Assembly: GCA_035275345.1 (NCBI GenBank)
Contig: DATEMY010000364.1
Location: forward strand, 642 to 64,641
Length of the DNA stretch: 64,000 nucleotides
Reading direction: 5' to 3'
Source of the DNA: Blastocatellia bacterium
GTDB lineage: Bacteria; Acidobacteriota; Blastocatellia; RBC074
Shown here: piece after piece, positions 180-46,151 of the stretch
Position numbering within the stretch: position 1 is the stretch's first letter
How the letters are laid out: every line of letters begins with the position of its first letter
Position numbers and translations under genes: made by a program
The notes under the pieces: generated by a model
What the model was told of the DNA's origin: nothing
Databases searched by the model: none
The model's input: only the letters and a program-made list of their open reading frames with translations

Positions 180-2774
180 ATGAAGCTCTCTGTTAGGCGG
201 ATGGTTCTGTTCTCTATCTGCCTGATTATCTCTTTTCTTTCAGCCCCTATCACGTCCTGGGCGACCAGCGTGATAGTGCCCAGCGACGACGAGATGGTCA
301 TCGGCGCGCGAGCCATCGTGCGCGGCGTCGTTACCTCGATCAACAGCGGTTACGACAACCGGCGCAAGGCGGTATTCACTTACGTCAACGTTCGAGTCTA
401 TGAATTTATAAAAGGACAGCTCGCATCGAATCCGTCGGGCGAAATCATATTGAAGCAACCGGGCGGCGTGGCGGGAGACCGAGGGACGATGATCTTCGGC
501 GCTCCGGAATTCACGGTAGGCGAGAACGTGCTGCTCTTTCTGGACACTTGGTCCGACGGCAGCCTGCGCGTTTACAACTGGTTCCTTGGCAAGTTCAATG
601 TCGGGATGAGTCGCGCGACTGGCAGGCAGATGGTGACGCGCCAGCCGCCCGGGCGCAACGTCGACGTCATCGGCAGATCGCCCGCCGGCCAGTCCACCGA
701 CCGGATGGATTTGACTTCTTACATTCAAATGCTCAGCTCTCGTGTTGCGGCGCATCGTCAAAGGTCGCTCGAGCACGAGAACAGGTTTTTCAGAAACGTT
801 CGAATGCGCGCGGTTCCAACCGAGGCATTGAATCTCTCGTCTTCGCAGTCGCCGATTCAAAACTTCACTTTCATCAACGGCGCCGCGCCGCCGCGATGGT
901 TCGAACCGGACAACGGCCAGTCCGTTGTGTTCAAGGTCAACGCTTCAGGAGCTCCGAATTCGCAAATCGTGAGTGACATAAACTCTGCGATCAGCGCCTG
1001 GTCGAACGTCAGCTCCAGCGCCTTACGCGTCGCCAACGGCGGCTCGACTGGCGGATGCGGACTGTTGACGGCTGACGGCGAGAACACCATATCATTTAAC
1101 AACTGCGACAACTTCACTCCGTTCTCCCCTCCGGCGGGGCAAAGTTGTTCCGGCATTCTCGCCGCCGCCGGCATCATCAACTACAGCCTCTCGCAGACCA
1201 GAGTCATAAACGGCATCACCTTCTACCGAGCCTTCGAAGCCAACATGTCGTTCAATCCCTTCGCGAGCTGCTATTTCACCAACAGTTGCAACGTGCGTGA
1301 AGTCGCCACGCACGAAATGGGACATGCGCTAGGTCTGGGTCATTCGTCCGACCCCGACGCGACGATGTACGCCTTCGCCCATTTTGACGGTCGCTGCGCT
1401 GCGCTTCGCGCCGATGACATGAACGGCATCAGGTTCATCTATCCGGGAACCATTCCCATCGCCCCTCTGATCATCGCGACATCAACGCTGCCGGCTGCGC
1501 AACGTGGCGTTTTCTATTCAATGTCGCTGGTTGGGGCGGGTGGAACCGCGCCTTACAACTGGAGCCTGATAGGTGGATCGCTGGCCCCAGGATTGACCCT
1601 CAATTCAGGCGGAACGATCAGCGGAATTCCGTCATCAGGAGGGGCATTCAATTTCACCGTCCGCCTGAGTGACGCGGCGTCCAGGACTGCGCAAAAGACT
1701 CTGAGCCTTTCTGTTACAGGCGCCGCCCCGCCTACGCCAACGCCGACGCCCAGACCGAGTCCAACGCCGACGCCCAGACCGAGTCCAACGCCGACTCCAA
1801 CGCCGACGCCCAGACCGAGTCCTACTCCAACGCCAACTCCCAGACCGAGTCCGACGCCAACGCCCAGACCGAGTCCAACGCCAACGCCCCTTCCGCCAAG
1901 CGGAACCAGAGCCAGGTTGGGGGATTTCGATGGCGACCGCAAGGCCGATTTGGCTGTGTGGAAAGCTTCGAGCGGGTCTTGGGAGATTCTGGGTAGCGCA
2001 AATGGGGAAACTCGGGAGGTACGGTTGAACGAGCCGAATCCGGATCAGGGCAACATCATTACCCCGGGCGATTATGATGGAGACGGCAGGATTGATTGCG
2101 CTGTCTGGCGTCCCTCGGACGGAACCTGGCTCATTATCAACAGCTCGAACGGATTGTTGACCACCAAAAAGCTAGGCGTACGAGGCGACACGCCGGCGCC
2201 AGCCGATTATGACGGCGATAGGAAAACAGATATCGCCGTTTGGCGCCCCTCCACCGGTTTCTGGTATATCGTTCAGAGCTCGAACGGAGTGACGAATAGC
2301 CTGGAGTGGGGATCGGGGGCCGGAGGCTGTTGCGATATTCCAGTTCCGGGGGATTATGACGGCGATGGCAGGGACGACATCGCCGTCTACCGCACGACGA
2401 ATGGCAACTGGTTAATCATAAACAGCTCGACCGGAGCGTTCTCCGGCAAAGTCCTTGGTAATACGGGGGACAGGCCGGCCCCGGCAGATTATGACGGAGA
2501 CGGAAAAACCGATATCGCCGTCTGGCGCAGCGCGCCCGGCTACTTTCTAGTTCGTTATAGCTCCACAAACTCGACCGTGTTCCAGCAGTTGGGAACGAGT
2601 ATGGAGCCTGACCGCGACGTTCCTGTTCCCGCTGATTACGATGGGGATGGGAAAGCAGACATCGCGGTTTGGGGACAATCCACCGGAATCTGGATGATTA
2701 TCAATTCGTCCAACAAATCCGTACGGACTCAATTCTTAGGAGCGATGGGCGATATCCCGATAACGATGAAATAG
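180..2774 (+). CDS. Exported M10 (matrixin-type) zinc metalloprotease with Ig-like domain, Pro/Thr linker and six FG-GAP/VCBS-like repeats
   Basis: In ORF 111..2774. ATG at 180 follows GGAGG (171-175) and opens a signal-like [28 protein letters not shown]. Zinc motif [11 protein letters not shown] followed by Met-turn-like ATMY. Six DYDGDGKxDxAVWR-type repeats at the C-terminus. Confidence 0.85.
1728..1893 (+). repeat. In-frame tandem nucleotide repeat encoding the PTPTPRPS linker
   Basis: Unit CCAACGCCGACGCCCAGACCGAGT recurs about five times with small variations. Translation is [31 protein letters not shown]... Confidence 0.85.
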
Positions 2775-2796
2775 CTTACGCTGAATATGCGGACCG

Positions 2797-2848
2797 AGTG
2801 AGCTATCGATATAAGAGAGTGAGGTCAACCTTATACCGATAGCTCACT
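2797..2848 (+). terminator. Hairpin downstream of the metalloprotease gene (19-bp stem, 1 mismatch)
   Basis: AGTGAGCTATCGATATAAG (2797-2815) pairs with CTTATACCGATAGCTCACT (2830-2848). No clean T-run follows, so terminator function is uncertain. Confidence 0.35.
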
Positions 2849-2937
2849 TGTGTTCAGCTATCTTTTAGTCCGCTCGCCAGCGTCAGGGAGGGACGGGATA
2901 GCCGGACTCAGTCCACTCTAAATCAGAACACATGAGG

Positions 2938-2966
2938 CCGGTACAGTACCGCGCGTACTGTACCGG
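2938..2966. terminator. Perfect 12-bp stem / 5-nt loop hairpin between convergent genes
   Basis: CCGGTACAGTAC-CGCGC-GTACTGTACCGG. Lies between the stop at 2774 (+) and the stop at 2991 (-). No U-tract on either strand. Confidence 0.35.
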
Positions 2967-2990
2967 TGTCCCAATGTTGCCTGGTTCGAT

Positions 2991-3908
2991 TTAGAGAAAC
3001 CATCTAGTACAGAGAAAAAGGGACGATAGTCGTTTTGTTGTTGTATCGGACCGGAGCAACAACCTTGAATCGCTAATCATGGGGGCGATCTGCAGCGGCA
3101 CGCGCAGCATCATCGGCGCGCCTGGCTTGGCTCTGACAAGGTAAATTGTTTGCGGCAGGGGATCGCCCTGCCTGAGGCGCCGTTCGCCTTTATCAGCTTC
3201 CCTCTCCGCAGCGGTCCACTGTTTGCCTGCTCCGCCTCGTTCTTCCTTCCGTTCTACGCGCCCTCCCCATTGCTTCTCCCACTGGGCCACTTGCGTTCTC
3301 TCGAGCCTGACGGGCTCGGCAGGCGTCCCGAGTGACAACTTTAGCGGTTTCTGGCTGACGATGATGGTGAGTTCCTCGCGCAACAGGTCTTTCCGGACGC
3401 GTTCCAGTGTGAAGTAAGGATATTCATCGCCTTGCGCCGGAACAAAAACCGGCTTTCCGGCCGACACCAGATTTCCCCCTTCGGGCGTGGTTTGAGAGGG
3501 AAAGATGAGGTAAGGGTCGCCTGTTGAACCATCCGCATAGATCTCGCTATCAATAACGTAAAGATAACCGTCGCTCGTTCGAGGCGCTTCGACGCTGATG
3601 CGCAGGCGTTCTCCCTCAGTAAACGCCGTGTCCGTGGTCGCGCGTTCGGCCGTCGGTTTGTCCTGGTCATCGCGTAAGCGCCAGAGCGTGATTCCGATAA
3701 GCTCCCCCTTCAAATTTGTCCCTTTGGGTCGCCTGGCGAGAGTGCGATCACGCGCCTCTCGAAACCTTTTGTTCCAAACCCGGCGCGTTCTATCTTCCGA
3801 CTCACGCTGCGGCAAAGGGCCGGCTACGGCCCACAGGCAGCAAAGACCGAGCAGAGCGGTTGTAATAATTCGCCCCCAGGGTCTAAACAACTTCTTTCTG
3901 TGAATCAT
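2991..3908 (-). CDS. Exported DUF4384-like protein
   Basis: In ORF 2991..3971. Internal ATG at 3908 gives MIHRKKLFRPWGRIITTALLGLCCLWAVAG (signal-like). The segment LRISVEAPRTSDGYLYVIDSEIYADGSTGDPYLIFP resembles the DUF4384 core and the kinase ectodomain at 7840-9741. Confidence 0.7.
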   Translation of the reverse strand: MIHRKKLFRPWGRIITTALLGLCCLWAVAGPLPQRESEDRTRRVWNKRFREARDRTLARRPKGTNLKGELIGITLWRLRDDQDKPTAERATTDTAFTEGERLRISVEAPRTSDGYLYVIDSEIYADGSTGDPYLIFPSQTTPEGGNLVSAGKPVFVPAQGDEYPYFTLERVRKDLLREELTIIVSQKPLKLSLGTPAEPVRLERTQVAQWEKQWGGRVERKEERGGAGKQWTAAEREADKGERRLRQGDPLPQTIYLVRAKPGAPMMLRVPLQIAPMISDSRLLLRSDTTTKRLSSLFLCTRWFL

Positions 3909-4023
3909 TCTCCCTCCGTAATTCTGGAAAAGAAGCTTATATCTCCCCGTCGCCAGAATTCCAGCCCTCACTTATTTAAGGCAGGAAATGCGGCGCCAAC
4001 GGCTAATCCCCGGCCAAAAGTTT

Positions 4024-7000
4024 TTATTTTTCTCTTTTACCATTTAAATTCGCCCACTCGCCTGACTGTATGAAGCTGGCCCAATAGTACGGATGCCGCC
4101 GTTTCACATCCTTGAGCATCTCTATTTGCGCCTGTCGCAGCGCGGCGGCGCGTCCTTGCCCACGTTGCAACCCCCGGTAGTAGGCCACCATCAGTTCTCT
4201 GGTCCATCGGTCCGACACCGGCCAGAGGCTCATCACCTGCGTTTCCGCGCCGGCCAGCGCCAGGGCCCGCCGCAGGCCATGAACTCCATCTCCGTTTCTT
4301 ACTTCACCCACTCCGGTATCGCAGGCCGAGAGGGACACCAATTTCGTCCCCCACAAATTAAGCCCTGTCATCTCCAGCGCCGTCAGGATCCCGTTTTCTC
4401 CTTCCTTCTGTTCGTTGGCGCCGGCCAACGCCAATCCTGCGCGCAGCAGAGGATTCTCGATGCGCGATCCATCCTTCTCGACCTGTTTCAGACGACGGCT
4501 AGGTCCGTGAGGCGATTTTCGCAGGCTTCTTTCTCCCGTCGATATCAATTTCAGGTCTTCCAGGAAGAAACCGTGCGTGGCGATGTGCAATATGGCAGGG
4601 CTGTGAACCTGCTCGAGCGCCGCCTTGTTCGCCCGGCGTTTGGTCAGCAGAGTCGCGTTGGGAAGTAGCGAGCGTATGGCGTTGCCTTCCTCCGCCGTGT
4701 AAGGCAGAGCAGGGAAGTAGAATTTGCTGAATGCGGTCGCGGGCGTCTCGTCCCTGGTCGGCCTCTTAGGCTCCGCTTTCGCCTTCTTAGGTTCCGCTTT
4801 CGACTGTTTCAGCAAACGCCTCGCTTCAACCAGACGCCGGCCTCCGAAGTCCGGATCGGCGATCACCAGGGGCCCGCTCTGACTCTTTCGGGGCGTCTGC
4901 AATCGTAGAAGGTCACGTCCGCTGGACAGATAGCTGATCGAGTAACGCTCGACCATATACCGCCCTCGATCATCGACGAGCGCCGCGTAAGGGATGAGAT
5001 TTAGCTCCCCATCAGGCGAGATGAGCAATCGTGTCAGACCTCCGGCCAGGTGGCGGAGGGGCTGAAATACTTTCTGATCAACTACTCGAGCCAGATACTT
5101 CACGTCCCTTCGCTTTGGGTCGCGCATCGCTTTGCGCAGCCTGGCGACGGCCTCGTCAATGGCCTTCGCATCGCCCAGCTCCTTCCACTGAATCTCTTCC
5201 TGCCGGCGCAGGACGTAGGCCACATATCGAGGCCGGCCATAAGCCTCATCTTCCTTTGCGGCTTTGGGATCGAACGGGCGATAAGAAGCGAGCTCGATCA
5301 GAGCCGCATCGTCGGGAATCGCCGCCCGCACGGCTTCGAGCGTGATGGGCAATGATCGGGCGCGGAATTCATCGCTTCTGCGACTGATCTCGGCCTCGAA
5401 CTTCTCGGCCTGTTCTTCGAGAGTCTTGATCCGTTCGCGATATTGATCGGCGGGCATTCCCTGCGGCCCGTCGAGGACCATCCTGGCGATTTGTGAGCGA
5501 GCGTCGGTCAAACTGTCGAGCAATGCTCGATCTTCCGCGTTGAATCGGCCGCGGAGGGCGTTGAGACTTACAGAAGTGGCGTCTAATGCGCGCCCCTTGC
5601 GCTGCAGGATCAATGTGGCGGCCAGGCTGCGCGCCACTGGATCACGGGGAGCATTGCTGAGATGGAGGGAGATGGTTCGATCGGTTTGCTTTGAGAGGGT
5701 GGCGAGATAAGCGAGTATCTGGCGCTCCGAGCTGGTAGCGAGATTGAGCCTGAGGTTGCGTTCGCTGACCGCGTTGGCGCGTGACTGAAAGGCTATCGCC
5801 TGAGCAATATCATTTTTCGCCAAATTAAGTACGGCGAGGTTATCGAGATAACTCGCGACATCAGGGTGTTCCGGCCCCAGCGTTTTCTCCCCGATGGTCA
5901 GCGCGCGTTGATGGAATTGCTCCGCCTTCGGATAATCGCCCCTGATGCGGAAGAGTTCCCCGAGATTGTCGAGAGACTGGGCGACATCAGGGTGCTCCGG
6001 TTCCAGTTCTTTCTCTCGGATGGCCAGCGCGCGTTGATGGAACTGCTCCGCCTTCGAATACTCGCCCCTTGAATAGTAGAGGTTGGCGAGATTGTTGAGA
6101 GAAGTGGCAAAAAAGGGGTGTTCCGGTCCGAGCGCCTTCTCTCTTATTGACAGCGCGCGTTGGTAGAACGGCTCCGCCTTCGAATACTCCCCTCTGTCGC
6201 AATAGAGGAGCGCCAGGTTATTGAGATAAAGGGCGATATTGGGGTGTTCCGGCTCCAGCCGTTTCTCATTTATGGCCAGCGCGCGTTGATAGAGTGGCTC
6301 CGCCTTCTCATAGTCGCCTCTGTAGTGGTAGAGGAGCGCAAGATTGTTGAGAGAACCAGCGACATCGAGGTTATCCGGCCCCAGCGTTTTCTCCCTTATA
6401 GCCAACGCCCGTTGATAGAGCGGCTCCGCCTTTGCGTAATCGCCTCTGGAATAGTAAAGGAGCGCGAGGCTGTTGAGAGACTCGGCGACTTTGAGATTAT
6501 CCGGCCCCAGCGTTTTCTCCCTTATAGTCAGCGCCCGTTGAGAGAACGGCTCCGCCTTCGAATACTCGCCCTTGTAATAGTAGAGGAGCGCAAGATTATT
6601 GAGGTAAGAGGTGATATTGGGATCTTCCGGTTCCAGCGACTTCTCCATTATGGCGAGCGCGCGTTGATAGAGCGGCTCCGCCTTCTCATAGTCGCCTTTG
6701 CTGCGGTAGATGATCGCAAGATTGTTGAGCGAACTGGCGAATTCGGGGTGTTCCAGTCCAAACGCCCGCTCCTTAACCACCAGCGCGCGTTCAAAGAGCT
6801 GTTCCGCCTTCTCATAGTCGCCTTTGCTGCGATGGAGGAGCGCCAGATTGTTGAGGGAAGCGGCGACATCAGGGTGATCCACTCCCAACGTTTTCTCCCG
6901 AATGTCGAGCGCTTGTTGATAGAGCGGCTCCGCCTTCGAATACTCGCCTTTGGAGGAGTAACATATAGCCTGGCCGACGATTGCGGCGACGACATCGGGG

Positions 7001-7617
7001 TGATCAGGCTCTAAAACCCTTGTGCGAATCTCCATCGCGCGTTCAATAGACGCAAGCGCTTCGTCATATTTGCCTGCGCCGTGCAATTCGATAGCCTTCC
7101 TGTACAAATATCGCGCCTCCAGCAGGGCGCGGTCATTCTTTGTTGCGGCGCGCAACTCCTCAATCCGAACCTCATAGGCGCCCCTCGGCGCCGCCTTCTG
7201 TACGGGGCGCACAATCAGCCGGTAATCGCCCTCCGTTTCGGCCACTTGCCAGACCGATTCCTGTCCGCGCAGCCTGCTTTCGGAATCGGAATCCATGACT
7301 TCTTTGCCGTCCGGCCCTAACAGATTCGCCACCACATCAATACCCTTTTGTTCGATGGTTACCTTCAGGAACTCATCAGCTCTCATCCTAATCCGATAGT
7401 TGTGTCGCTGCCTGGCCTCCAACTCGCGTCGTTGGGGCTTGCCTGGCTCAAGATCGCGGACATCATTCTCACCGCCAGCCCCGCTTCCTGCGGCGCCTGG
7501 GGCTTGGGTCGATTGCTGGAACTCCACGGTCGCATTCCCGAAAGCCCCTTGTGGAGCCGCGACGACGAACAGGCCAATGAGCGGTAAAAGAGTTAATTGG
7601 TTGATCATGCGCCGCAT
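4024..7617 (-). CDS. Exported TPR-repeat CHAT-domain (caspase-fold) protein
   Basis: 1197-aa ORF with AGGAG upstream of the ATG at 7617. N-terminal signal MRRMINQLTLLPLIGLFVVAAPQGAFG. About ten 42-residue TPRs (GDYEKAEPLYQRALAIREKTLGPxHPDVAxSLNNLALLY). C-terminal His and Cys motifs ILHIATHGFF and LVSLSACDTGVG typical of CHAT. Confidence 0.9.
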   Translation of the reverse strand: MRRMINQLTLLPLIGLFVVAAPQGAFGNATVEFQQSTQAPGAAGSGAGGENDVRDLEPGKPQRRELEARQRHNYRIRMRADEFLKVTIEQKGIDVVANLLGPDGKEVMDSDSESRLRGQESVWQVAETEGDYRLIVRPVQKAAPRGAYEVRIEELRAATKNDRALLEARYLYRKAIELHGAGKYDEALASIERAMEIRTRVLEPDHPDVVAAIVGQAICYSSKGEYSKAEPLYQQALDIREKTLGVDHPDVAASLNNLALLHRSKGDYEKAEQLFERALVVKERAFGLEHPEFASSLNNLAIIYRSKGDYEKAEPLYQRALAIMEKSLEPEDPNITSYLNNLALLYYYKGEYSKAEPFSQRALTIREKTLGPDNLKVAESLNSLALLYYSRGDYAKAEPLYQRALAIREKTLGPDNLDVAGSLNNLALLYHYRGDYEKAEPLYQRALAINEKRLEPEHPNIALYLNNLALLYCDRGEYSKAEPFYQRALSIREKALGPEHPFFATSLNNLANLYYSRGEYSKAEQFHQRALAIREKELEPEHPDVAQSLDNLGELFRIRGDYPKAEQFHQRALTIGEKTLGPEHPDVASYLDNLAVLNLAKNDIAQAIAFQSRANAVSERNLRLNLATSSERQILAYLATLSKQTDRTISLHLSNAPRDPVARSLAATLILQRKGRALDATSVSLNALRGRFNAEDRALLDSLTDARSQIARMVLDGPQGMPADQYRERIKTLEEQAEKFEAEISRRSDEFRARSLPITLEAVRAAIPDDAALIELASYRPFDPKAAKEDEAYGRPRYVAYVLRRQEEIQWKELGDAKAIDEAVARLRKAMRDPKRRDVKYLARVVDQKVFQPLRHLAGGLTRLLISPDGELNLIPYAALVDDRGRYMVERYSISYLSSGRDLLRLQTPRKSQSGPLVIADPDFGGRRLVEARRLLKQSKAEPKKAKAEPKRPTRDETPATAFSKFYFPALPYTAEEGNAIRSLLPNATLLTKRRANKAALEQVHSPAILHIATHGFFLEDLKLISTGERSLRKSPHGPSRRLKQVEKDGSRIENPLLRAGLALAGANEQKEGENGILTALEMTGLNLWGTKLVSLSACDTGVGEVRNGDGVHGLRRALALAGAETQVMSLWPVSDRWTRELMVAYYRGLQRGQGRAAALRQAQIEMLKDVKRRHPYYWASFIQSGEWANLNGKREK

Positions 7618-7839
7618 AACAAAATTCTCCTTTTGTTATATTTCTAAGGAAGCGATGTTTGTGAGGGCGTTATGAGCCAGGGGCAAATTTCGGCCAAATA
7701 GCCGGGAGTTTCAAAGATGATTTCTTCACTCCGTTCGGAGTCGCTGTGGTGATTTTGTGGGTGCTTTGTTTTCTCGCCCCCATTTAGAACGGTGATCGTG
7801 GGAGTCTTGCAATAAGAGATGCTCAATTATACTGGAGAA

Positions 7840-9741
7840 TCAATGATGCTCAAGCTTCATCATCCATACCAGCGTTTCGCCTTTAACTTTGAGCCTGGTC
7901 TGTTTGTTTACCTCATCCCTTTCGACTTCAGGCTTGATGGCCGAAAACGACGCCAGATAATGCAATACTGACGCTCTCTGGGTTAGATCACGGATGGCGC
8001 CGTGGTCCTTGGGATTCGCCCAGCCTTTGACGGCCTCCAACTCAGGAACGGCGCGCTCGGACCAGATGAGCCAGATATTCTCGGCGCCTTCTTCATGGTC
8101 GAGGACGAACCAATTCTCCCGCTGGTTCGGGCCGGGCAGCGGGATTCGCGCTACCTGGCCAGCGCGGATTTCCGGCGAACCGCCGCGGATATCCGCGTCG
8201 GGAAAGAGGAAGTTGAAATTGGGTAAACCATCATTCTGCCTCGGCCCTTCGTTTATGACATATAAAGAGCCGGATTGCGGACTGCTGATGTGGAAGCGTA
8301 TCTCGTCGCTTGCTCCCAGGATGAGATTGTCGAAGGTGGGGAATGGCTTGGCGCGAGGGGTACGTCTGGGGTCTCGTCGCGCCTCCATGATGTAATTGAG
8401 ACGCCGGTCCGAAGCCACGACGGGAGTCGTTCGGGCCTCCTCAGGTTGAGCCTTGTTCCCTATGCTGAAGCGCGGCAAGTCGAGAATGCCGATGACGGCC
8501 AAAAGGGTCAAGGCGAGTGGCGCCAACCATCGCCGCAGGCCGGCAATCGCGTAGGACGCCGTCGCCAATGGACTCCCTTCTCCTCCCAGGCTGTCTGCGA
8601 ACGCGTCAGTAAAATCTTTCGCGTTAGTGAACCGGTCCTCCGGGACGAACGAGAGCGCTTTTAAAATCATGTCTTGTGAGGCTTCAGGCAAATCGGCGCG
8701 CAGTTCGCGCGGTTTGACTTTGACCCCGGCGCGCTGCGATTCATAGAGTTGAAAAATTGACTCGTCGTTGAAAGGCCGCCGCCCGGTTACCAATTCGTAA
8801 GCGATTACTCCCAGGGCATAGATGTCACTGGCCGCGACCGGTTTTCCGCGTAACTGTTCAGGCGCCACGTAACTGCGCGTCCCAACGACTTCGGTAGTCT
8901 GGCAATCGGCTCCCTCCGGCAGCTCATGTATTGTCGCAATTCCGAAATCAATCAGCTTCACATACTCTTCATCATTCAAAATCTGAAGCATGATATTTTC
9001 AGGCTTGAGGTCACGATGAATGACGCCTTGTCGGTGAGCGGCTGCGAGAGCCTGTCCCATCTGGCGGATTATCTTTGCGATGCGCTCAAACTCCATTCCA
9101 CCCCGAGTCATTGCGGAGCGCAGGCTCTCGCCGGAGACATATTGCATAACGAGATATGACCGTCCGTCGGGTAATGCGCCGACGTCGAGCGCGCGCACCA
9201 CGCCCGGATGGTCGATCCGCGACAAGGCTGCGATCTCAATCCTGAATTTCTTTTCCAACCACGTCCTGCGCATGGTTTGTCGCCATACGTTCAGCAAGAC
9301 TTTGATCACCACCGGCGCGTCATGCAACTTCCGGTCGCGGGCGAAGAAAACCGCGCAGGTCCCGCCCTGACCCAATTCTCTTTCGATCACATAACGCCCG
9401 CCGAGCATGGCGCCTGGCGCGAAGTATCCGGCTAATCCTTCGGACGGAGATGCCGTGACGTTATTCGGCGGATGGTCACAACCCGGGAGAGCTGCGCCTT
9501 TCGCGTCCAGGTCGTCTTCATCATGATTCGCGGCGTCCGTCAGCGGGGGCATTGAGAGCAGCGCGGGCGTGGCAAGGAAACTCTCCGCCCGCCCTTCATG
9601 AGTTAACATCGCTTCGACCTCCGAGCGCAAGAACGCATCGCCAGCGCAAGCCCTGGCAAGGAAACCGGAGCGCTGTCCCGCTTCAAGCTGCAAGGCGCTG
9701 TAGCAGATCCGGCAAACCCGTTCGTATAATTCCGGCGTCAC
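7840..9741 (-). CDS. Membrane Ser/Thr protein kinase with C-terminal DUF4384-like ectodomain
   Basis: GTG start at 9741. An AGGAG overlaps the sigma gene stop. Motifs HRDLKPENIML, DFGIA, YVAPEQ. TM segment LAPLALTLLAVIGIL. C-terminal IRFHISSPQSGSLYVINEGP...FNFLFPD. Confidence 0.9.
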   Translation of the reverse strand: MTPELYERVCRICYSALQLEAGQRSGFLARACAGDAFLRSEVEAMLTHEGRAESFLATPALLSMPPLTDAANHDEDDLDAKGAALPGCDHPPNNVTASPSEGLAGYFAPGAMLGGRYVIERELGQGGTCAVFFARDRKLHDAPVVIKVLLNVWRQTMRRTWLEKKFRIEIAALSRIDHPGVVRALDVGALPDGRSYLVMQYVSGESLRSAMTRGGMEFERIAKIIRQMGQALAAAHRQGVIHRDLKPENIMLQILNDEEYVKLIDFGIATIHELPEGADCQTTEVVGTRSYVAPEQLRGKPVAASDIYALGVIAYELVTGRRPFNDESIFQLYESQRAGVKVKPRELRADLPEASQDMILKALSFVPEDRFTNAKDFTDAFADSLGGEGSPLATASYAIAGLRRWLAPLALTLLAVIGILDLPRFSIGNKAQPEEARTTPVVASDRRLNYIMEARRDPRRTPRAKPFPTFDNLILGASDEIRFHISSPQSGSLYVINEGPRQNDGLPNFNFLFPDADIRGGSPEIRAGQVARIPLPGPNQRENWFVLDHEEGAENIWLIWSERAVPELEAVKGWANPKDHGAIRDLTQRASVLHYLASFSAIKPEVERDEVNKQTRLKVKGETLVWMMKLEHH

Positions 9742-9751
9742 TGTTTAGCTC

Positions 9752-10309
9752 CTATCCTAGCTCGCGAAGAAGCCAGAGTTTGGCCAGGGTCAAGTCTCGC
9801 TTGACGGTCCCAAGCGAAACGCTGAGGACTTCGGCTATCTCTTTCAAAGCCAGGCCGCCGAAGAAGTGCAATTCCACCACTCGGCTTTGTCTGGAATGCA
9901 GCGCGGACAGCTTATCCAATGCTATATCAAGATCGACGAGATCCGGGTTGCGTTCGGAAAATACCTCGGCCGCTTCTTCCAACGTGACATGCTTCGCTCC
10001 GGCGCCGCGCTTTAAGGCTTTTTGCTCGAGGGCGTAATCAACCAGAATGCGCCGCATCATCTGGGCCGCCACCCCGAAGAAATGAGCGCGGTTCTGCCAC
10101 TGCACGTTTTGCCAGTCGATCAATCGTAGGTAGGCTTCTTGCAGGAGAGCGGTAGTTTGCAGAATATGGTTGGGGCGTTCCTTCGCCAGGTAACTCTTGG
10201 CCAGGCGGCGCAACTCAGCATGCACCATCGGGGCGAGTTTTTCGAGCGCCTCTCGATCTCCATCGCTCCACGCTACCAGTAGCTTGGTGATCTCGTGTGT
10301 CGTCGACAT
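9752..10309 (-). CDS. ECF-type RNA polymerase sigma factor (Sigma70_ECF / TIGR02999-like, kinase-associated type)
   Basis: ORF 9752..10330 opens with TTG. I prefer the ATG at 10309 (MSTTHEITKLL). Has TTALLQEAYLRLIDW and the C-terminal HTH LSVSLGTVKRDLTLAKLWL. No anti-sigma gene is adjacent. Confidence 0.85.
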   Translation of the reverse strand: MSTTHEITKLLVAWSDGDREALEKLAPMVHAELRRLAKSYLAKERPNHILQTTALLQEAYLRLIDWQNVQWQNRAHFFGVAAQMMRRILVDYALEQKALKRGAGAKHVTLEEAAEVFSERNPDLVDLDIALDKLSALHSRQSRVVELHFFGGLALKEIAEVLSVSLGTVKRDLTLAKLWLLRELG

Positions 10310-10383
10310 TACTAACCATCTCTTAGCCAATTGGCGACCACGGGGACGGCGTTATTTTATCACAGTCGCAGATAGGCGCGTCG

Positions 10384-11214
10384 TTATTTCTGTCCGACGA
10401 TCAGCGTCGCTTTGATCGAAACGTCGAAGTCCATCATGTGGCGGTCTTCATCAATGATCTTTACCGACTGCTCTCGAACCTTACCGCGAGTCTCTTCATC
10501 CGGCAGGATCGCCAACCAGTCGTCGAGGAAGAAGGTTTCGATCAGCGGCGCTTCGAAGAACGCTTTTCCGTCATTGAAATCAAACCGCTCTTTACGCGTC
10601 ACGCTTCGAACGTGGTTCAGGCCGGCGTCAATCGCGATCTGTTCGGCGTCGCTCACAGTCAAGCGCTCGGTGATCAGTCCCTCGAGCTGAGGCGTGTAAT
10701 CGAGCAATCCCAGGTTGTATAAAGATTCCCAGTAGATCGAGAAGAATTCGTCGAAACTGCCGCGGGTCGTCAGCTTCAATACGACAGTAGCGCCACTCTT
10801 CGCGACCCGCGCCAGCTCAGCGAGAGCCGGCCCGATTGCCGCAGGCGGCAGCATCGAAGCGTCGCCGATCACGAGATCGAACTCTCCGTCGTCGAATTTG
10901 AGCGATTGCAGCGAGCCCTCGCGAAATTCCACGCGGTCCACCTTTTTCACCTCGGCCTTGCCGCGCGCCAGAATCAGTTTCTCGGCGCTCGGATCAACGC
11001 CGACGACCTCCGTTTTCGCGCCGCATCTGATCGCCAGATCAATCGCATAACCGCCCGTTCCGCATCCGGCGTCCAGAATCTTTCCTTCCTCAGGCATTCC
11101 GACTTCGTCATCGATCATCTGATCGAAGGCTTCAGTCCATACGGGCGCGACATACAGGTCATGGATGTACGCAATCTCTTTGGCGTCTCTCATTGTGTCG
11201 TCATTCCCTCGCAT
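10384..11214 (-). CDS. Class I SAM-dependent methyltransferase
   Basis: Motif I ILDAGCGTGGYAIDLA. An alternative ATG at 11193 has a better GAGGGA spacer. Confidence 0.8.
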   Translation of the reverse strand: MRGNDDTMRDAKEIAYIHDLYVAPVWTEAFDQMIDDEVGMPEEGKILDAGCGTGGYAIDLAIRCGAKTEVVGVDPSAEKLILARGKAEVKKVDRVEFREGSLQSLKFDDGEFDLVIGDASMLPPAAIGPALAELARVAKSGATVVLKLTTRGSFDEFFSIYWESLYNLGLLDYTPQLEGLITERLTVSDAEQIAIDAGLNHVRSVTRKERFDFNDGKAFFEAPLIETFFLDDWLAILPDEETRGKVREQSVKIIDEDRHMMDFDVSIKATLIVGQK

Positions 11215-11564
11215 AATGGCACGATACTAGCCAATCAATCGCGCAGGCTGCAAGCGCCTGACGGTACGTTTTGACGCTGATCGCGCGTCGCCAAGGCCCC
11301 GTTCAGGCCTCATCGGCATGTCCTCCAATTCAGAAAAAGCAAGCTTCGCTTTCAGATCGGCCTGTGAATTTTTTTGCCGGCCTACAAGTTCCGCGGCGCC
11401 ATTCCCGCATTTAGGAAGTGAGGGGAGCAAGCGGCCCCCCTTAATGGTGGTGGGGCAATTAACGCTCAGCCCAATTCAACCCAACTACAGTAAGGCGCAG
11501 GGGCGGCTTCAGCCGTGGCCCCAAGCGCCTCTCATGCCGCGCAATTTATAAGAGGAGAAAGATT

Positions 11565-13235
11565 ATGCAGAAGATGTGGAAAATTTCGATCATTGCTTTG
11601 GCCTTCATCCTGGCCATTGGTCCCATGTTCAGTTCAGCGCCAGTGGGCGCGCAGGTCGGCTCCAATCAGGCGATCCAGCCTCAAAAGCAGTTGAGCCCGC
11701 AACAACAACAGGCGCTCCGGGCTTTGGGAAGGCGTTTGCAGGAGGTCGAGTTCGACGACCGCGCAGTCCCTTCCTGGCTGAGGGGCGATTTGGGGACGGT
11801 CAATGGGAGTCCTCGTGACGCGGCCGTCGAAGCGATGCGCGCGCTCGGTCCCCTCTTCCGCCGCGGGGCGGACGACGAGTTCGAGATGAGTAAGGAGCCT
11901 GTCCAGGACGAGCTGGGCCAGACGCACGTTCGGTTGCAGCAACGTTACCGCGGACTGCGTGTGGTGAGCGCCAAAATGATCGTGCACCTTCAGGGCGATC
12001 GTGTCATAGGCGTCAACGGCGATTTTATTCCCGAGATTGATCTGGACCCGAGGCCGGGCTTGATCGCCGAGGTCGCGTTTGGCATCGCGCGAAGGAGAAT
12101 GCCGGCGGCGGAGATGGTTGAAATCACCAGGCCCGAGCTGGTGGTTTTTGTCACGGAGGATAAGACGCCTCGCCTGGCCTGGAGCCAGCAAGTGGCCTAT
12201 GAAAGCGCTGACGGCCAGCCGAACAAAGACCTGATCTTCGCCGACGCCGCCACAGGCGACCTGCTGGGGCAGCGCGCGCTCATCTGGACGGCCAAGAACC
12301 GCAAGGTTTATAGCGCCAATCACGGAACCAGTCTGCCGGGTAATCCGCTCTGGCAAGAGGGAGACATTCTCTTTTCGTTCTATAGCGATGCGCTGAAAGG
12401 CGCCGTCAACGGAACGGGAAAGACCTACGATTTTTACAAGAACGTTTTTAACCGGGACTCTTACAACAATGCGGGGGCGGCGCTGATCTCCACCATCCAT
12501 TACGGGAACGACTACAACAACGCGTACTGGGATTCGAGCTTGAAGCAGATGGTCTATGGCGACGGCGACGGAGTGACGTTCAAGCCACTGTCCATCGGGG
12601 TGGATGTCACGGCGCATGAGTTGACCCACGGTGTGACCGACGCGACAGCAGACCTGATCTACGCGAAGGAGTCCGGGGCGCTCAACGAGGCCATCTCCGA
12701 TATCCTCGCCATCGCCACGGAGAATTATTACCCATCTTCCATACAGCCTTTATTCTTCGATTGGCAGATCGGTGAGGACGTCTATACGCCAAACGTGGCG
12801 GGCGATGCGCTCCGCTATATGAACAATCCGACTCTGGACGGATATTCCGCCGACTACTACCCGGACCGCCTTTATCCCGGAACCTGTACGCCCTCGTGGG
12901 GTAACGATTACTGCGGCGTACATGGCAATAGTGGCATCGCCAACCTCGCCTTCTACCTGATGGTCGTCGGCGGACAGCACCCGCAGGGGAAGACCACGAA
13001 TGTGGCGCCCGCCATCGGCATGTCGAAGGCAAGAAAGATCTGGTACCGCGCGCTGACGGTCTATATGGATGAAGATGACAACTTCCAGCAGGCCCGCTCC
13101 AAGACAGTTCAGGCCGCCGCCGACCTGTACGGCGGGAACTGTGGGGACGCAGCCAAGGCGGTTAGGAGCGCGTGGAACGCGGTGGGCGTCACACCTACCA
13201 GTCTCATACTACCCTGCTTAGTCCTTCCTATCTAA
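11565..13235 (+). CDS. Exported M4 (thermolysin-family) metallopeptidase with propeptide
   Basis: AGAGGAGA upstream of the ATG. Signal-like MQKMWKISIIALAFILAIGPMFSSAPVGA. Motifs VTAHELTHGVTD (HExxH) and GALNEAISD. Confidence 0.9.
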   Translation: MQKMWKISIIALAFILAIGPMFSSAPVGAQVGSNQAIQPQKQLSPQQQQALRALGRRLQEVEFDDRAVPSWLRGDLGTVNGSPRDAAVEAMRALGPLFRRGADDEFEMSKEPVQDELGQTHVRLQQRYRGLRVVSAKMIVHLQGDRVIGVNGDFIPEIDLDPRPGLIAEVAFGIARRRMPAAEMVEITRPELVVFVTEDKTPRLAWSQQVAYESADGQPNKDLIFADAATGDLLGQRALIWTAKNRKVYSANHGTSLPGNPLWQEGDILFSFYSDALKGAVNGTGKTYDFYKNVFNRDSYNNAGAALISTIHYGNDYNNAYWDSSLKQMVYGDGDGVTFKPLSIGVDVTAHELTHGVTDATADLIYAKESGALNEAISDILAIATENYYPSSIQPLFFDWQIGEDVYTPNVAGDALRYMNNPTLDGYSADYYPDRLYPGTCTPSWGNDYCGVHGNSGIANLAFYLMVVGGQHPQGKTTNVAPAIGMSKARKIWYRALTVYMDEDDNFQQARSKTVQAAADLYGGNCGDAAKAVRSAWNAVGVTPTSLILPCLVLPI

Positions 13236-13473: not shown

Positions 13474-13725
13474 ATGAAGAAAGATACAGCTCTTTCTGTG
13501 GCGATGCCCACAATTAAGATAATTACCCTGGGGATGCTTATGTGGGGCGCTAACGTTTTGTCTACCGAAGCAACTGCTGGATCCGCATGTTATACCTGCA
13601 GTACGGTTGGAGGGGCATACAACTGTGTGGAGCCAAACCCCGGTGGGTCTGGGTATTCCGCATGCGCTGAATGGCATGAGTCAGGTAGTTGTATTCTTAG
13701 CGGAACGAGTTGCACGGCGAGCTGA
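13474..13725 (+). CDS. Small exported cysteine-rich peptide (83-aa precursor, predicted 48-aa mature part with 6 Cys)
   Basis: AAGGAGG at 13462-13468, ATG at 13474. Sec-type leader MKKDTALSVAMPTIKIITLGMLMWGANVLSTEATA. Remainder GSACYTCSTVGGAYNCVEPNPGGSGYSACAEWHESGSCILSGTSCTAS. Lies in the low-GC island. Confidence 0.65.
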   Translation: MKKDTALSVAMPTIKIITLGMLMWGANVLSTEATAGSACYTCSTVGGAYNCVEPNPGGSGYSACAEWHESGSCILSGTSCTAS

Positions 13726-13901
13726 GCTAAAGTAGCTGCCCGCTCAAAAGGCGTTCTTGGGTAAGTTACATTTATGGCTCAAGAGGCGATTAAGCGTTTC
13801 GCTTCTCTACAGTACAAAAAATGATGTTGGACTGTGGTCATAGCTAATCAGGTCATCGTGCGATTTGACTTTCTGTCGCCAAACTGAAAGGAGATCACAC
13901 G

Positions 13902-14540
13902 ATGACCGGCGTTCGCTTGCTTGAGCGAACGATTATACTGTCACATTTCGCTGCTGCGGTAGAACCGGCATTTACACATGATGGCTCATCATCGAAAGGA
14001 TATTGTATGCATGATATTGCTAAGAAGCTTAATGCACTCGCAAACATTACAATTATTATAGTTGGGGTGATAATAGTCGCCCTTTTAGTTAAACGGCAGT
14101 TCTTCAGTGAGCCACTATTCTCAACTAATAATTTCCAGATTGGAAAAAGAGTTCCGCTGGAGGAAATAACGTGGGATCAAAATGACCAAACACTATTTCT
14201 CGTAATCACGGAAAAATGTCATTTTTGTACAAGCGGTATGCCCTTTTATCGTCAATTGGCAGAGATGCGAAACGGCCAAAATAAGTTTAAACTAGTTGTA
14301 ATTACAACGGGCAGGGGTGATGAAGGAAAGAGATATGTTAATAGTTTAGGCATAACGATTGATGAGATAAAACAAGTGACGGATAAAACAATTGGGATTG
14401 TACGAGTGCCATCTATAATACTTGCCAACAGCAGTGGTATCGTAACAGATATCTGGACCGGGAAGTTGACTTCTGTTCAGGAGACGGAAGTATTGGATAG
14501 ATTGAAAGGCGTTGGCCATTTGGTCACACAACACCCGTAA
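13902..14540 (+). CDS. Membrane-anchored thioredoxin-fold thiol:disulfide oxidoreductase (TlpA/ResA-like, CHFC active site)
   Basis: GAAAGGAG 7 nt before the ATG at 13902 (alternative ATG at 14007 gives MHDIAKK...). TM anchor ITIIIVGVIIVALLV. CxxC context FLVITEKCHFCTSGMPFY. Confidence 0.7.
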   Translation: MTGVRLLERTIILSHFAAAVEPAFTHDGSSSKGYCMHDIAKKLNALANITIIIVGVIIVALLVKRQFFSEPLFSTNNFQIGKRVPLEEITWDQNDQTLFLVITEKCHFCTSGMPFYRQLAEMRNGQNKFKLVVITTGRGDEGKRYVNSLGITIDEIKQVTDKTIGIVRVPSIILANSSGIVTDIWTGKLTSVQETEVLDRLKGVGHLVTQHP

Positions 14541-14564
14541 ATGGTACAATTGTAGACCGCAATA

Positions 14565-16505
14565 ATGAATGGAGACCTAAACATGGAAAAGTTAGCGGCA
14601 GTTTTATTTCTACCTTCCACATCCGACTCAATACACTATAGACCGTATTTAGATTTTGTGGGACCCACAAATTTACTTGAGTGGTTTATTGATAGATTCA
14701 TTTCTGCGAACCCAACCGTTAGTTTGTATGTCCTGGCTCAGGGAGGCGCTGACTTACAGCTCGTGAGCGATAAGGCGCATTATATCAAGACTGATCACAA
14801 AACAAAGCTATTGGCATTTGCGCAGGCAGCTCGTGATATACCTAAACCTTATATAGCATTCCTGACCTTAGGTTTTGGATTCGCCCCAAGAAGCTTATTG
14901 GAATACGCCTATTCACACCACGTATCTTCCGGCAACAACTTTACGCCCATTATAGGGCTACCAAACGGCGTTATCCCCGAGATATACAACTCTGATCTAT
15001 TATTGTCACTCCTAGATCTCAAATTCCCGTTTTTACCACCCGATCCAGTCGTAATTATTGATCGCCTCTCGCAGATTGCCAGCTCTACGGGCGAGACGCC
15101 TATACCTATAAGAGATCAGGTTCTTGATGCGGCGGCTTTGTACAATGTTGATCCGGTTGAACTACCAGAATATGTCCAGCTGGAGTACTCCAGAGATATT
15201 GACGTCGCAAGAAGCGCGATCACTGACTTATCAGCGTTGAATGATGAAGGTGGCATAGATGGTCTTCGTTGCTGGAAACAAGCTGCGTTAGAGGAACGTC
15301 TAAATTTCCGCGGCGGGCTGGCGCGAGGAATTAATATAGAAAACGATTTTAAGAAGAAAACTACGCGACGGCGTGTTCTTTACGTTTCTAATCCTTCGGC
15401 ATTTTCTGGCGCAGAGGGAAGCTTATGTCAGCTAACCTCACGCTTGGATACAGATCGCTACCAACCATTTGCATTAATAGGCCTGAGAGGAGTTTTTTCG
15501 GAGCGCCTAAAATCATTAGGAGTTAGTGTGATATGCCCGGATTGGGATTTTGGGAGTAATACCTTAGATGTTTTTCTGTATCTCATGAATACCGTTCGCA
15601 GGATTCAGCCTGATATTATACACCTTAATGGTATTACAGGAATTCCAATAATGTTTGTGGCAGCCTCATTAGGTATACCCACCATCTTGCATTTACGATT
15701 TACGTCTAAACCAGGGTCAGCAGAACAATTACGGTGCGCTGATAGTTTTATCGCAGTTTCAGAATTCGTCAAGCGAGAAACCGCTAAACTCAATATAGTA
15801 AAAGACTCGATATACGTCGTCAAAAATGGGATAGATACCTGTTATTTTCGCAAGGACATATACAACAAGCTTGAAATGAGACAGGAATTCGGACTCCCGC
15901 TCGACTCAAAGATTGTATTAATGGTAGCTCGCTTTGCGCCATACAAACGACATGACTTAATGTTGAAGGCTGCTGACATTATAAGAAAATTCGTTCCATC
16001 ATTTCATTTAATCATCGTTGGCGAAGCTTTGGGATATCATGAATATTATGAGTCAATTCAACAGGCCAGAGATGATTTAAACTTAAATGACTGCGTAACC
16101 TTCATTGGTTTTCAAGCGGATATAAGAAAGTTAGAGGCTGCGGCTGATGTGTTAGTATCGTGTTCCGATGGCGAGCCGCTTTCACGGTGTATTATCGAAG
16201 CAATGGCCATGGAATTACCGGTAGTCGCCGTGAATTCCGGCGGTACTCCCGAAATCATCGAGGATAAAAAGACTGGTTTTATTGTAGAGAATGGCGCCCA
16301 TGCGAAGTTGGCGGAGCGTTTAATCGAAGTTCTTACTGTGGATGGGCTTTGCGTACAAATGGCGCAGGAGGCTAGAAAATTCGCGGAACGTGAGTTAGAC
16401 GCTAGCATATGCGCTAACCGAACCATGGAGATATATGATTTGACATTGTCGAAGCGGCAAAATCGGCAACAAATAAACGCTCGACCCACTCAGTCGGGAT
16501 GTTGA
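14565..16505 (+). CDS. Two-domain glycosyltransferase: ~270-aa uncharacterised N-terminal domain fused to a GT4 (GT-B) domain
   Basis: C-terminal EPLSRCIIEAMAMELPVVAVNSGGTPEIIEDKKTGFIV (E-x7-E region) and RRVLYVSNPSAFSGAEGS are typical of GT4. The alternative ATG at 14583 has a better GGAGA spacer. Confidence 0.8.
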   Translation: MNGDLNMEKLAAVLFLPSTSDSIHYRPYLDFVGPTNLLEWFIDRFISANPTVSLYVLAQGGADLQLVSDKAHYIKTDHKTKLLAFAQAARDIPKPYIAFLTLGFGFAPRSLLEYAYSHHVSSGNNFTPIIGLPNGVIPEIYNSDLLLSLLDLKFPFLPPDPVVIIDRLSQIASSTGETPIPIRDQVLDAAALYNVDPVELPEYVQLEYSRDIDVARSAITDLSALNDEGGIDGLRCWKQAALEERLNFRGGLARGINIENDFKKKTTRRRVLYVSNPSAFSGAEGSLCQLTSRLDTDRYQPFALIGLRGVFSERLKSLGVSVICPDWDFGSNTLDVFLYLMNTVRRIQPDIIHLNGITGIPIMFVAASLGIPTILHLRFTSKPGSAEQLRCADSFIAVSEFVKRETAKLNIVKDSIYVVKNGIDTCYFRKDIYNKLEMRQEFGLPLDSKIVLMVARFAPYKRHDLMLKAADIIRKFVPSFHLIIVGEALGYHEYYESIQQARDDLNLNDCVTFIGFQADIRKLEAAADVLVSCSDGEPLSRCIIEAMAMELPVVAVNSGGTPEIIEDKKTGFIVENGAHAKLAERLIEVLTVDGLCVQMAQEARKFAERELDASICANRTMEIYDLTLSKRQNRQQINARPTQSGC

Positions 16506-44534: not shown

Positions 44535-44673
44535 AAGGTAGGGCAAACTGTCAGTTTGCCTTGCTCCCTTTAATGGCGTCTTTCAAGAAAACTGCGCAAA
44601 CTCACAGTTTGCCCGCTCTTCTCGAAAGGAACTATTGAATCAATCGAGGCAAACTGACAGTTTGCCCTACCTT
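44535..44673. repeat. Triple-palindrome spacer: GGCAAACTG-N-CAGTTTGCC x3, outer copies forming a perfect 26-bp inverted repeat
   Basis: 44535-44560 is the exact reverse complement of 44648-44673. Each arm is itself palindromic. A third related palindrome lies at 44596-44612. Confidence 0.85.
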
Positions 44674-46120: not shown

Positions 46121-46151
46121 AACCGAACTCCTAGTCCTCACTTTGATCGTT

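Follow-up and report, generated by a model that had tools for sequence, protein, structure and literature searches.

In the DegS/RseP/RseA-sigmaE system an extracytoplasmic protease turns an envelope cue into the activation of a sigma factor of the extracytoplasmic function (ECF) type. This logic is summarised in PMC11506125, which also deals with DdvA, a periplasmic tetratricopeptide repeat (TPR)-CHAT protein that is fused to an anti-sigma, carries the catalytic dyad H862/C907 and has been proposed to be a self-cleaving site-1 protease. In Craspase the TPR-CHAT protein Csx29 cleaves Csx30, which holds the ECF sigma factor RpoE, and the C-terminal domains of some Csx30 proteins are DUF4384 (bioRxiv 10.1101/2022.08.17.504292). 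The same domain is present in cyanobacterial orthocaspase-DUF4384 fusions (PMC8283722) and at the C-terminus of the "Proteo1" Ser/Thr kinases (bioRxiv 10.1101/2025.01.12.632604). The ECF43 sigma factors are defined by an adjacent Hanks-type kinase and the lack of an anti-sigma; the acidic motif of their region sigma2.2 is replaced by an uncharged one with a phosphorylatable Thr (consensus QTTA, STTA in EcfP), and phosphorylation supplies the negative charge required for binding to core RNA polymerase (PMC13147305, PMC8999054, PMC7826278). Here we describe a four-gene locus in a 64,000-nucleotide window from a soil Blastocatellia bacterium of the Acidobacteriota (contig DATEMY010000364.1 of GCA_035275345.1; "the window" below) in which a sigma factor that fits ECF43, a receptor kinase, a predicted exported TPR-CHAT protease and a small DUF4384 protein, here called gene 4, form a string that looks like an undescribed sensing route for extracellular events.

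The locus lies at positions 2991-10309, where four minus-strand open reading frames (ORFs) encode the sigma factor, the kinase, the TPR-CHAT protein and gene 4, in this order. An earlier reading made without database searches (the sequence-only reading) had called these genes, and its coordinates and domain descriptions all proved correct when set against the ORF list, Pfam, NCBIfam and the sequence itself. It had also named no characterised example of such a system. This holds for the exact architecture and fails for the broader principle, since DdvA/DdvS and Craspase-Csx30-RpoE already tie a TPR-CHAT protease to an ECF sigma factor. EcfP/PknT and EcfK/PknS are known examples of the sigma-to-kinase half. 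Its linkage with exported caspase-fold proteases and with DUF4384 proteins is undescribed and, judged from the gene neighbourhoods compared below, conserved and lineage-restricted. The literature searched did not describe the four-gene neighbourhood or architecture, and mentioned DUF4384 solely as an item in domain lists or in passing remarks.

Like the DdvA/DdvS system, the window locus has a TPR-CHAT protein, predicted to be extracytoplasmic, with a canonical His/Cys dyad that is genetically tied to an ECF sigma factor, and for DdvA too it has been proposed that the protease is activated by a signal and so starts transmembrane signalling (PMC11506125). In DdvA, however, the CHAT domain is fused to a zinc anti-sigma domain and a transmembrane segment, the sigma factor is freed by regulated intramembrane proteolysis and there is no DUF4384 partner, whereas the window encodes a free exported CHAT protein, no anti-sigma and a sigma factor of the phosphorylation type. 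Pfam found no anti-sigma domain in the window CHAT protein, the signal-like start of which is followed by an N-terminal region and TPRs, and this separates it from the DdvA type. The Craspase module (Csx29, Csx30, Csx31, RpoE) resembles the locus in combining a TPR-CHAT protein, a partner that bears DUF4384 in some lineages and an ECF sigma factor. It is, however, cytoplasmic, RNA-guided via Cas7-11 and without a kinase, and its sigma factor is sequestered by Csx30/Csx31 and not phosphorylated, while the window CHAT protein has an export signal and gave no sequence-level match to Craspase. No cas genes adjoin the module, in a 64-kb window that was not exhaustively scanned for them, and membership of the Craspase group is not indicated. 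The locus shares parts and logic with DdvA/DdvS and Craspase and is a member of neither. The DUF4384 fusion proteins show the same pairings (caspase fold with DUF4384, kinase with DUF4384), but on single polypeptides, and the reports on them concern domain architectures only; the three- or four-gene neighbourhood and the free DUF4384 family are not in them. Relative to DegS/RseP/RseA, the route proposed below would do without an anti-sigma and a site-2 protease and use a kinase and sigma phosphorylation instead, and DegS is a serine protease whereas the window enzyme is caspase-fold.

The case for a functional unit is carried by the recurrence of these genes in related genomes. In all, 47 loci with gene-4 homologues were gathered, five by exact-protein look-up and 42 at one genome per species, which left 45 distinct loci after duplicate removal, the window counted. 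Nearly all are from metagenome-assembled genomes (MAGs) labelled Blastocatellia, Pyrinomonadaceae, Chloracidobacterium or Acidobacteriota, with a few labelled Clostridia or Heliobacteriaceae; all the genomes are MAGs, and many contigs are short. Annotation used the longest ORFs and ad hoc local hidden Markov models (HMMs) seeded from Pfam-verified domains. A caspase-fold gene lies within 10 kb of gene 4 in 37/45 loci and directly beside it in 29/45; the corresponding values for a kinase with a DUF4384 ectodomain are 24/45 and 14/45. A sigma gene occurs within 10 kb in 11/45, and all four genes in 9/45. Where at least 8 kb of both flanks was available (n=19), the protease was present in 17 loci, the kinase in 13 and both in 12. 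Caspase-fold ORFs number 48 in the 450 kb that lie within 4 kb of a DUF4384 gene versus 2 in 276 kb of remoter flanks of the same loci, an enrichment of about 15-fold.

The protease of the 37 loci is either TPR-CHAT or a Peptidase_C14 fused to WD40, TPR or HEAT repeats, and the association survives this exchange as well as changes in gene order and strand. Thus the sigma-kinase pair stands on the opposite strand, 3-4 kb away, in L006, L007 and the P0032 contig, and gene-4 identity falls to 34-40% among the recurrent loci. The sequence-only reading had supposed that these genes belong together, and they do recur together in relatives, in variable order and strand. The comparison strongly supports a linkage of gene 4 with both a caspase-fold protease and a DUF4384-kinase across the Blastocatellia. 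On this sampling the three constitute the conserved core and the sigma factor is an optional output, its presence in 11/45 loci indicating that output through sigma is not obligatory. In several MAGs there is more than one paralogous module (L009/L017, L026/L033, L024/L035, L013/L030, L014/L046, L037/L045).

Three of the related loci depart from the common pattern. One module (L003, 1799-12722) has up to three caspase-fold genes in a cluster made up of a gene-4 homologue, a C14-HEAT protein, a TPR protein, a DUF4384 kinase, a C14 protein, a 504-amino acid protein and a C14-DUF4384 fusion. Another (L045, 7616-10750, plus strand) encodes a 1044-amino acid protein with a gene-4-like region at its C-terminus (residues 746-1044) and an uncharacterised N-terminal part, adjoining a kinase on the opposite strand. 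In the third (L048, 10001-17800) a sigma factor with 79% identity and a DUF4384 kinase stand beside a fragmented TPR-CHAT gene with no gene-4 homologue, which looks like a decayed module copy or a frameshift-rich assembly.

The sigma factor (9752..10309, minus strand; 185 amino acids) matches Pfam Sigma70_ECF (PF07638; 9.1e-48, 163 bits) and NCBIfam TIGR02999 (203.6 bits, cutoff 126.15). The acidic sigma2.2 motif (DAED/DxxD) is absent and in its place stands an uncharged QTTA (residues 51-54, nt 10148-10159), the third position of which is Ser or Thr in 10/10 aligned related sigma factors; Thr53 occupies the position phosphorylated in EcfP and EcfK. Downstream, the kinase follows after 10 nt; upstream, a S-adenosylmethionine (SAM) methyltransferase gene lies 74 nt away, and these gaps leave no room for an anti-sigma gene. 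By its profile matches, QTTA motif and neighbours the protein fits the kinase-regulated ECF43 class. This bears out three points of the sequence-only reading, namely that no anti-sigma gene stands beside the sigma gene, that the sigma is of ECF43 type, a group with a classical anti-sigma not being indicated, and that sigma phosphorylation is known for some ECFs, having been found to be direct in EcfP and EcfK (PMC13147305, PMC8999054). The same is true of its description of the junction (9742..9756, minus strand), where AGGAG overlaps the sigma TAG stop, 7 nt ahead of the kinase GTG; read directly the sequence is ...CTAGGATAGGAGCTAAACAGTG. Junctions in related loci are as tight or overlapping, and translational coupling of the sigma factor to the kinase is strongly supported by this arrangement.

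The pair closely resembles EcfP-PknT of Vibrio parahaemolyticus and EcfK-PknS of Xanthomonas citri, which likewise have a PF07638/TIGR02999 sigma factor and no anti-sigma, xTTA instead of an acidic sigma2.2 motif, and a phospho-threonine in the same place (Thr53 in the window, Thr51 in EcfK; PMC13147305, PMC8999054). As with PknS, the adjacent kinase is a single-pass receptor with an N-terminal extension (PMC13147305). The sensor ectodomain differs, being DUF4384 in the window kinase versus TPRs in PknS, and for neither EcfP nor EcfK have partners been described that match the co-conserved exported caspase-fold protease and the free DUF4384 protein. The sigma family is large (at least 8000 matches). 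Look-ups centred on four homologues (66-79% identity), picked solely for their long contigs, found a kinase directly after the sigma gene in 4/4, and the kinase was next in every sigma homologue examined. The kinase sensors in these four loci were DUF4384, WD40, hemopexin and a cytoplasmic cyclase/AAA_16. Since the sensors differ, the sigma/kinase pair appears to be a generic output chassis with exchangeable sensors. In one sub-clade only (L025, L028, L030 and L033) the motif GAyACTTTTTGC-N10-11-CGC is conserved upstream of the sigma gene and of no other (plus strand, at about 722, 7274, 5596 and 7172, respectively; approximately 90-130 nt upstream). It is a candidate autoregulated ECF promoter; the motif was not found elsewhere in these four loci or in the window.

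The second gene (7840..9741, minus strand; 633 amino acids, GTG start) specifies a receptor Hanks-type Ser/Thr kinase. Its Pkinase domain (residues 117-373, 2.4e-46) has a complete set of motifs: VVIK(144), HRDLKPEN(242), DFG(265) and APE(291, within YVAPE). A transmembrane segment is predicted at the hydropathy maximum between Pkinase and DUF4384 (residues 405-423, 8473..8529), and a hydrophobic segment occupies this place in all DUF4384 kinases examined. It is followed by a DUF4384-like beta-sandwich core (residues 451-567, 8041..8391; Pfam and hhalign). Hydropathy and conservation strongly support a single-pass kinase with its DUF4384 beta-sandwich exposed outside the cytoplasm. Ahead of the kinase domain there is a segment of about 60 amino acids (9562..9741; VTPELYERV...FLARACAGDAFLRSEVEAML), with the consensus MTPERxxx...FL..AC.gD..LR.EVE.LL across homologues and no Pfam match. 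It occurs in 16/16 kinases linked to a sigma gene, irrespective of the type of sensor (the window, L007, L012, L022, L024, L025, L027, L028, L030, L033, L034, L048-L051 and L054), versus 0/14 sigma-less DUF4384 kinases. From this distribution we infer that the segment couples the kinase to its sigma factor and is a candidate docking element, and its strict link with sigma adjacency may make it of wider relevance to docking in sigma phosphorylation. A helical N-terminal extension of 83 amino acids, which is uncharacterised, is present in PknS of Xanthomonas (PMC13147305). A CxxC in the N-terminus of the window kinase was considered as a zinc anti-sigma-like motif and rejected, as it is not conserved among homologues.

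The third gene (4024..7617, minus strand; 1197 amino acids) encodes the predicted exported caspase-fold protease, recognised by TPR and CHAT profiles. A signal-like N-terminus (7537-7617; MRRMINQLTLLPLIGLFVVAAPQGAFG) is followed by a region with no domain assignment (residues 36-165, 7123-7512), an array of ten TPR_12/TPR_10 stretches (5698-7122) and a CHAT domain (PF12770; residues 842-1186, 4060-5094, 8.6e-84) that covers profile positions 3-288 of 289. The predicted catalytic residues are His1015 (codon 4573..4575) in ILHIATHG and Cys1099 (codon 4321..4323) in SLSACDTG, which correspond to the CHAT dyad motifs HxxxHG and LSACxT as established for this family and for DdvA (H862/C907; PMC11506125). 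The dyad is invariant in 17/17 CHAT proteins linked to gene 4 and in 25/25 wider homologues (alignment A2). The hydrophobic N-terminus is kept in TPR-CHAT homologues, and nearly all full-length CHAT and C14 neighbours of gene 4 have a signal-like start in which positive charge precedes a hydrophobic stretch. An exported TPR-CHAT protein with both catalytic motifs, as had been called from the sequence, is thus what the alignment indicates. Sequence searches of the PDB with the CHAT half, as a single sequence and as a profile, gave no meaningful match, and fold comparison alone worked. An AlphaFold2 model of the C-terminal 578 residues (mean predicted local distance difference test score, pLDDT, 64) retrieved with Foldseek, at probabilities of at least 0.97, Csx29 as the best match (8d9f, 8eey, 7zoq; E 1.3e-6 to 1.4e-5), separase (5.8e-5 to 1e-3) and DdvA (8rw5, 8rot; about 2-4e-3); as modelled, the CHAT fold matches the separase/Craspase type.

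Gene 4 (2991..3908, minus strand; 305 amino acids) lies 115 nt beyond the CHAT gene, with a strong GGAGGG Shine-Dalgarno sequence ahead of its ATG at 3908. The product is predicted to be exported, with an export-type signal-like N-terminus (3822-3908) that the aligned homologues all share, and contains a beta-sandwich core (residues 84-191, 3336-3659). Its family comprises over 500 cluster representatives. DUF4384 (PF14326) matches residues 96-187 at 26.1 bits. In the kinase it matches residues 479-563 at 22.5 bits (25.1 on the isolated ectodomain), and the Pfam gathering score is 27. Among 25 relatives of gene 4, 12 match the Pfam profile at E <= 1e-3 (best 5.6e-7), and several relatives carry a precomputed PF14326 match. 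Direct comparison of gene 4 with the kinase ectodomain is weak (BLASTP, 23% identity over 61 amino acids, E = 0.006), whereas the two families align by hhalign at 97.4% probability (E = 1.3e-11, 110 columns); profile to profile, the two DUF4384 modules are clearly homologous. The shared core, which had been suspected from the two sequences, therefore stands at the level of families, each window protein alone being just below threshold. The accompanying remark that DUF4384 is often fused to caspase-fold peptidases is documented (PMC8283722), and the C14-DUF4384 protein of L003 is a further case. When a gene-4-only HMM was used with hhalign the likeness did not reach beyond the core of about 110 amino acids. 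The idea that the whole kinase ectodomain (about 270 amino acids) is a gene-4 paralogue was rejected, as the homology is confined to that core; the wider signal arose from mixing both protein types in one iterative local HMM.

An AlphaFold2 model of gene 4 (pLDDT 77.6) has an N-terminal helix from which a variable linker leads to an Ig-like beta-sandwich, with weak fold matches to RhoGDI/UNC119-type Ig-like sandwiches (E >= 5e-3); PDB sequence searches with the family, as single sequence and as profile, gave no meaningful match. The last 29 residues (MISDSRLLL...RWFL; 2994..3080, minus strand), delimited by protein and DNA alignment, are missing from all 24 aligned homologues, which stop at ...RIAP. 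A C-run that is longer by one base (ATCGCCCCCATGA in the window versus ATCG-CGCCGTGA in relatives) shifts the ancestral TGA out of frame; the frameshift is either genuine or due to an indel in the assembly. Pfam gave no match to the N-terminal domain or middle region of the CHAT protein, the kinase N-terminus or the gene-4 C-terminus, and an Rfam scan of 2700-11600 gave nothing credible.

We propose that the four genes form one transmembrane signalling module in which the protease would act via a DUF4384 partner on the kinase and sigma factor, a reading to which we assign a probability of roughly 0.5. Given the signal-like N-termini and the transmembrane segment of the kinase, the CHAT or C14 protease, gene 4 and the DUF4384 ectodomain are predicted to meet outside the cytoplasmic membrane; these export and topology predictions are based on hydropathy and conservation. 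The exported protease would be inactive until its TPR array or other repeat scaffold, or its N-terminal domain, meets an envelope cue. Once active it might bind or cleave a DUF4384 partner, namely the free gene-4 protein, the kinase at its ectodomain or linker, or each of the two. This event would alter the oligomeric state of the kinase and lead to autophosphorylation, upon which the kinase would phosphorylate Thr53 of the sigma factor, permitting core RNA polymerase binding and switching on the regulon. Mutual recognition of caspase-fold proteases and their partners would then be mediated by DUF4384, with gene 4 acting as a soluble co-receptor, decoy or substrate relative to the kinase ectodomain. 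At loci without a sigma gene the kinase presumably acts on other substrates. To our knowledge the input signals of very few ECF43 sigma/kinase pairs have been defined, and we know of no bacterial Hanks kinase that is under the control of a protease outside the membrane. Were the wiring correct, DUF4384, which recurs in fusions with caspases and kinases, would gain its first function, some of the very abundant exported TPR-CHAT/caspase proteins of the Acidobacteria would have a role, and a phosphorylation branch would be added to the emerging theme of sigma control by caspase-like proteases (DdvA, Craspase).

Several observations weigh against this proposal. The 222-nt spacer between the kinase and CHAT genes contains a sigma-70-like promoter match which would give the protease a separate promoter (TTGAGC-16-TATAAT, 10/12; 7826..7853, minus strand, predicted by consensus scan only); it lies over the kinase stop, about 210 nt upstream of the CHAT gene. 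A shared ECF promoter, sought upstream of the sigma, CHAT and gene-4 genes, was not found in the window. Eight of the 45 gene-4 loci have no protease in reach, some of them being limited by contig ends, and a sigma factor accompanies gene 4 in the minority of loci noted above. Both window DUF4384 matches fall just short of the gathering score, and the model of the CHAT domain is of low confidence around the active site (pLDDT <50). None of three paralogous TPR-CHAT genes sampled from long contigs (53-69% identity, same N-terminal domain) has a gene-4 neighbour, so that the association is directional and the protease family far broader than the module. Lastly, the view of the sequence-only reading that the string is a coherent system is supported at the genomic level; the wiring of protease, DUF4384 and kinase, including the contact of the protease with gene 4 and the kinase ectodomain, is inferred.

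A bolder version, which we hold tentatively and consider possible though doubtful, is that DUF4384 is a dedicated recognition module for caspase-fold proteases and that the locus encodes a cascade from periplasmic caspase to Hanks kinase to sigma phosphorylation. If so, it would join DdvA/DdvS and Craspase-Csx30-RpoE as one of three independent architectures in which a sigma factor is gated by a caspase-fold protease, and the accessory genes of Craspase were perhaps recruited from such envelope modules.

The signalling reading has to be weighed against other ways of accounting for the same neighbourhoods. That gene 4 is mostly found directly beside the protease (29/45), and that many loci have both without kinase or sigma (L002, L018-L020, L039-L041), would also suit a cassette of a protease and its partner, in which gene 4 is an inhibitor, chaperone, anchor or pro-substrate and the protease works outside the cell in protein processing, remodelling of the surface or proteolysis for nutrients. 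In that case the protease would not act on the sigma/kinase pair, which would have no part beyond regulating expression or, by way of its own DUF4384 domain, detecting the same ligand. The CHAT gene's predicted promoter and the other secreted peptidases that flank the locus (matrixin/FG-GAP and thermolysin M4) agree with such a cassette. We nevertheless judge it unlikely, because the same rare ectodomain occurs on a kinase within 10 kb of gene 4 in 24/45 loci, and beside it in 14, which is hard to account for unless the function is shared. Moreover, TPR, WD40 and HEAT scaffolds are typical of regulated, partner-specific caspase-fold proteases (separase, Craspase, DdvA; PMC11506125) and not of bulk digestive enzymes. 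Chance proximity, in a group such as the Acidobacteria where TPR-CHAT and kinase genes are very abundant, could draw on the sheer size of the families (4704 TPR-CHAT matches at E <= 1e-5 among 8000 candidates, and the sigma family given above) and on the CHAT paralogues that lack gene 4. It is very hard to reconcile with the roughly 15-fold enrichment of caspase-fold ORFs near DUF4384 genes, with a recurrence that extends over 37/45 loci and to gene-4 identities as low as 34-40%, and with a linkage that outlasts CHAT/C14 exchange and changes of order and strand, and we regard it as extremely improbable.

The module might, on the other hand, serve as a conflict sensor, with attack by phage, predator or competitor at the envelope turning on a defence regulon. 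The parallels would be DdvA/DdvS, which is part of a CBASS-CRISPR island, Craspase-Csx30-RpoE, and PknS/EcfK, which governs the use of type VI secretion against amoebae. Each of these three characterised systems, to which parts of the locus are related, has a role in defence (PMC11506125, bioRxiv 10.1101/2022.08.17.504292, PMC13147305), and the paralogous modules in several MAGs suggest diversification. PADLOC, however, returned generic kinase and TPR matches only for the four proteins, and neither in the window nor in the examined loci do recognised defence or cas genes stand beside the module. A defence role thus seems rather improbable to us, and signalling from an exported protease through DUF4384 to the kinase remains the reading that we prefer.

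As to the surroundings, secreted-type peptidase genes flank the module on either side, a matrixin/He_PIG/FG-GAP gene at 111-2774 and a thermolysin M4 gene at 11565-13235, both on the plus strand. The matrixin/FG-GAP gene is syntenic solely in the closest relative (L001). The methyltransferase upstream of the sigma gene (10384-11214) and the M4 peptidase were considered as parts of the module and rejected, neither being co-conserved. The stretch from about 13500 to 16500 has a G+C content of 0.41-0.45 versus approximately 0.57 around it and holds an ORF with no Pfam match (13902-14540) and a GT4/GT1 glycosyltransferase gene (14565-16505); the stretch was perhaps acquired as an island. Besides the ECF43-type gene, the window encodes a classical ECF sigma factor (Sigma70_r2/r4_2) at 47116-47733 on the minus strand, where it is followed by a 343-amino acid protein with no Pfam match that is a candidate anti-sigma (46152-47183, minus strand) and a TPR/HEAT protein (44672-46141, minus strand), the three making up a locus at 44672-47733.

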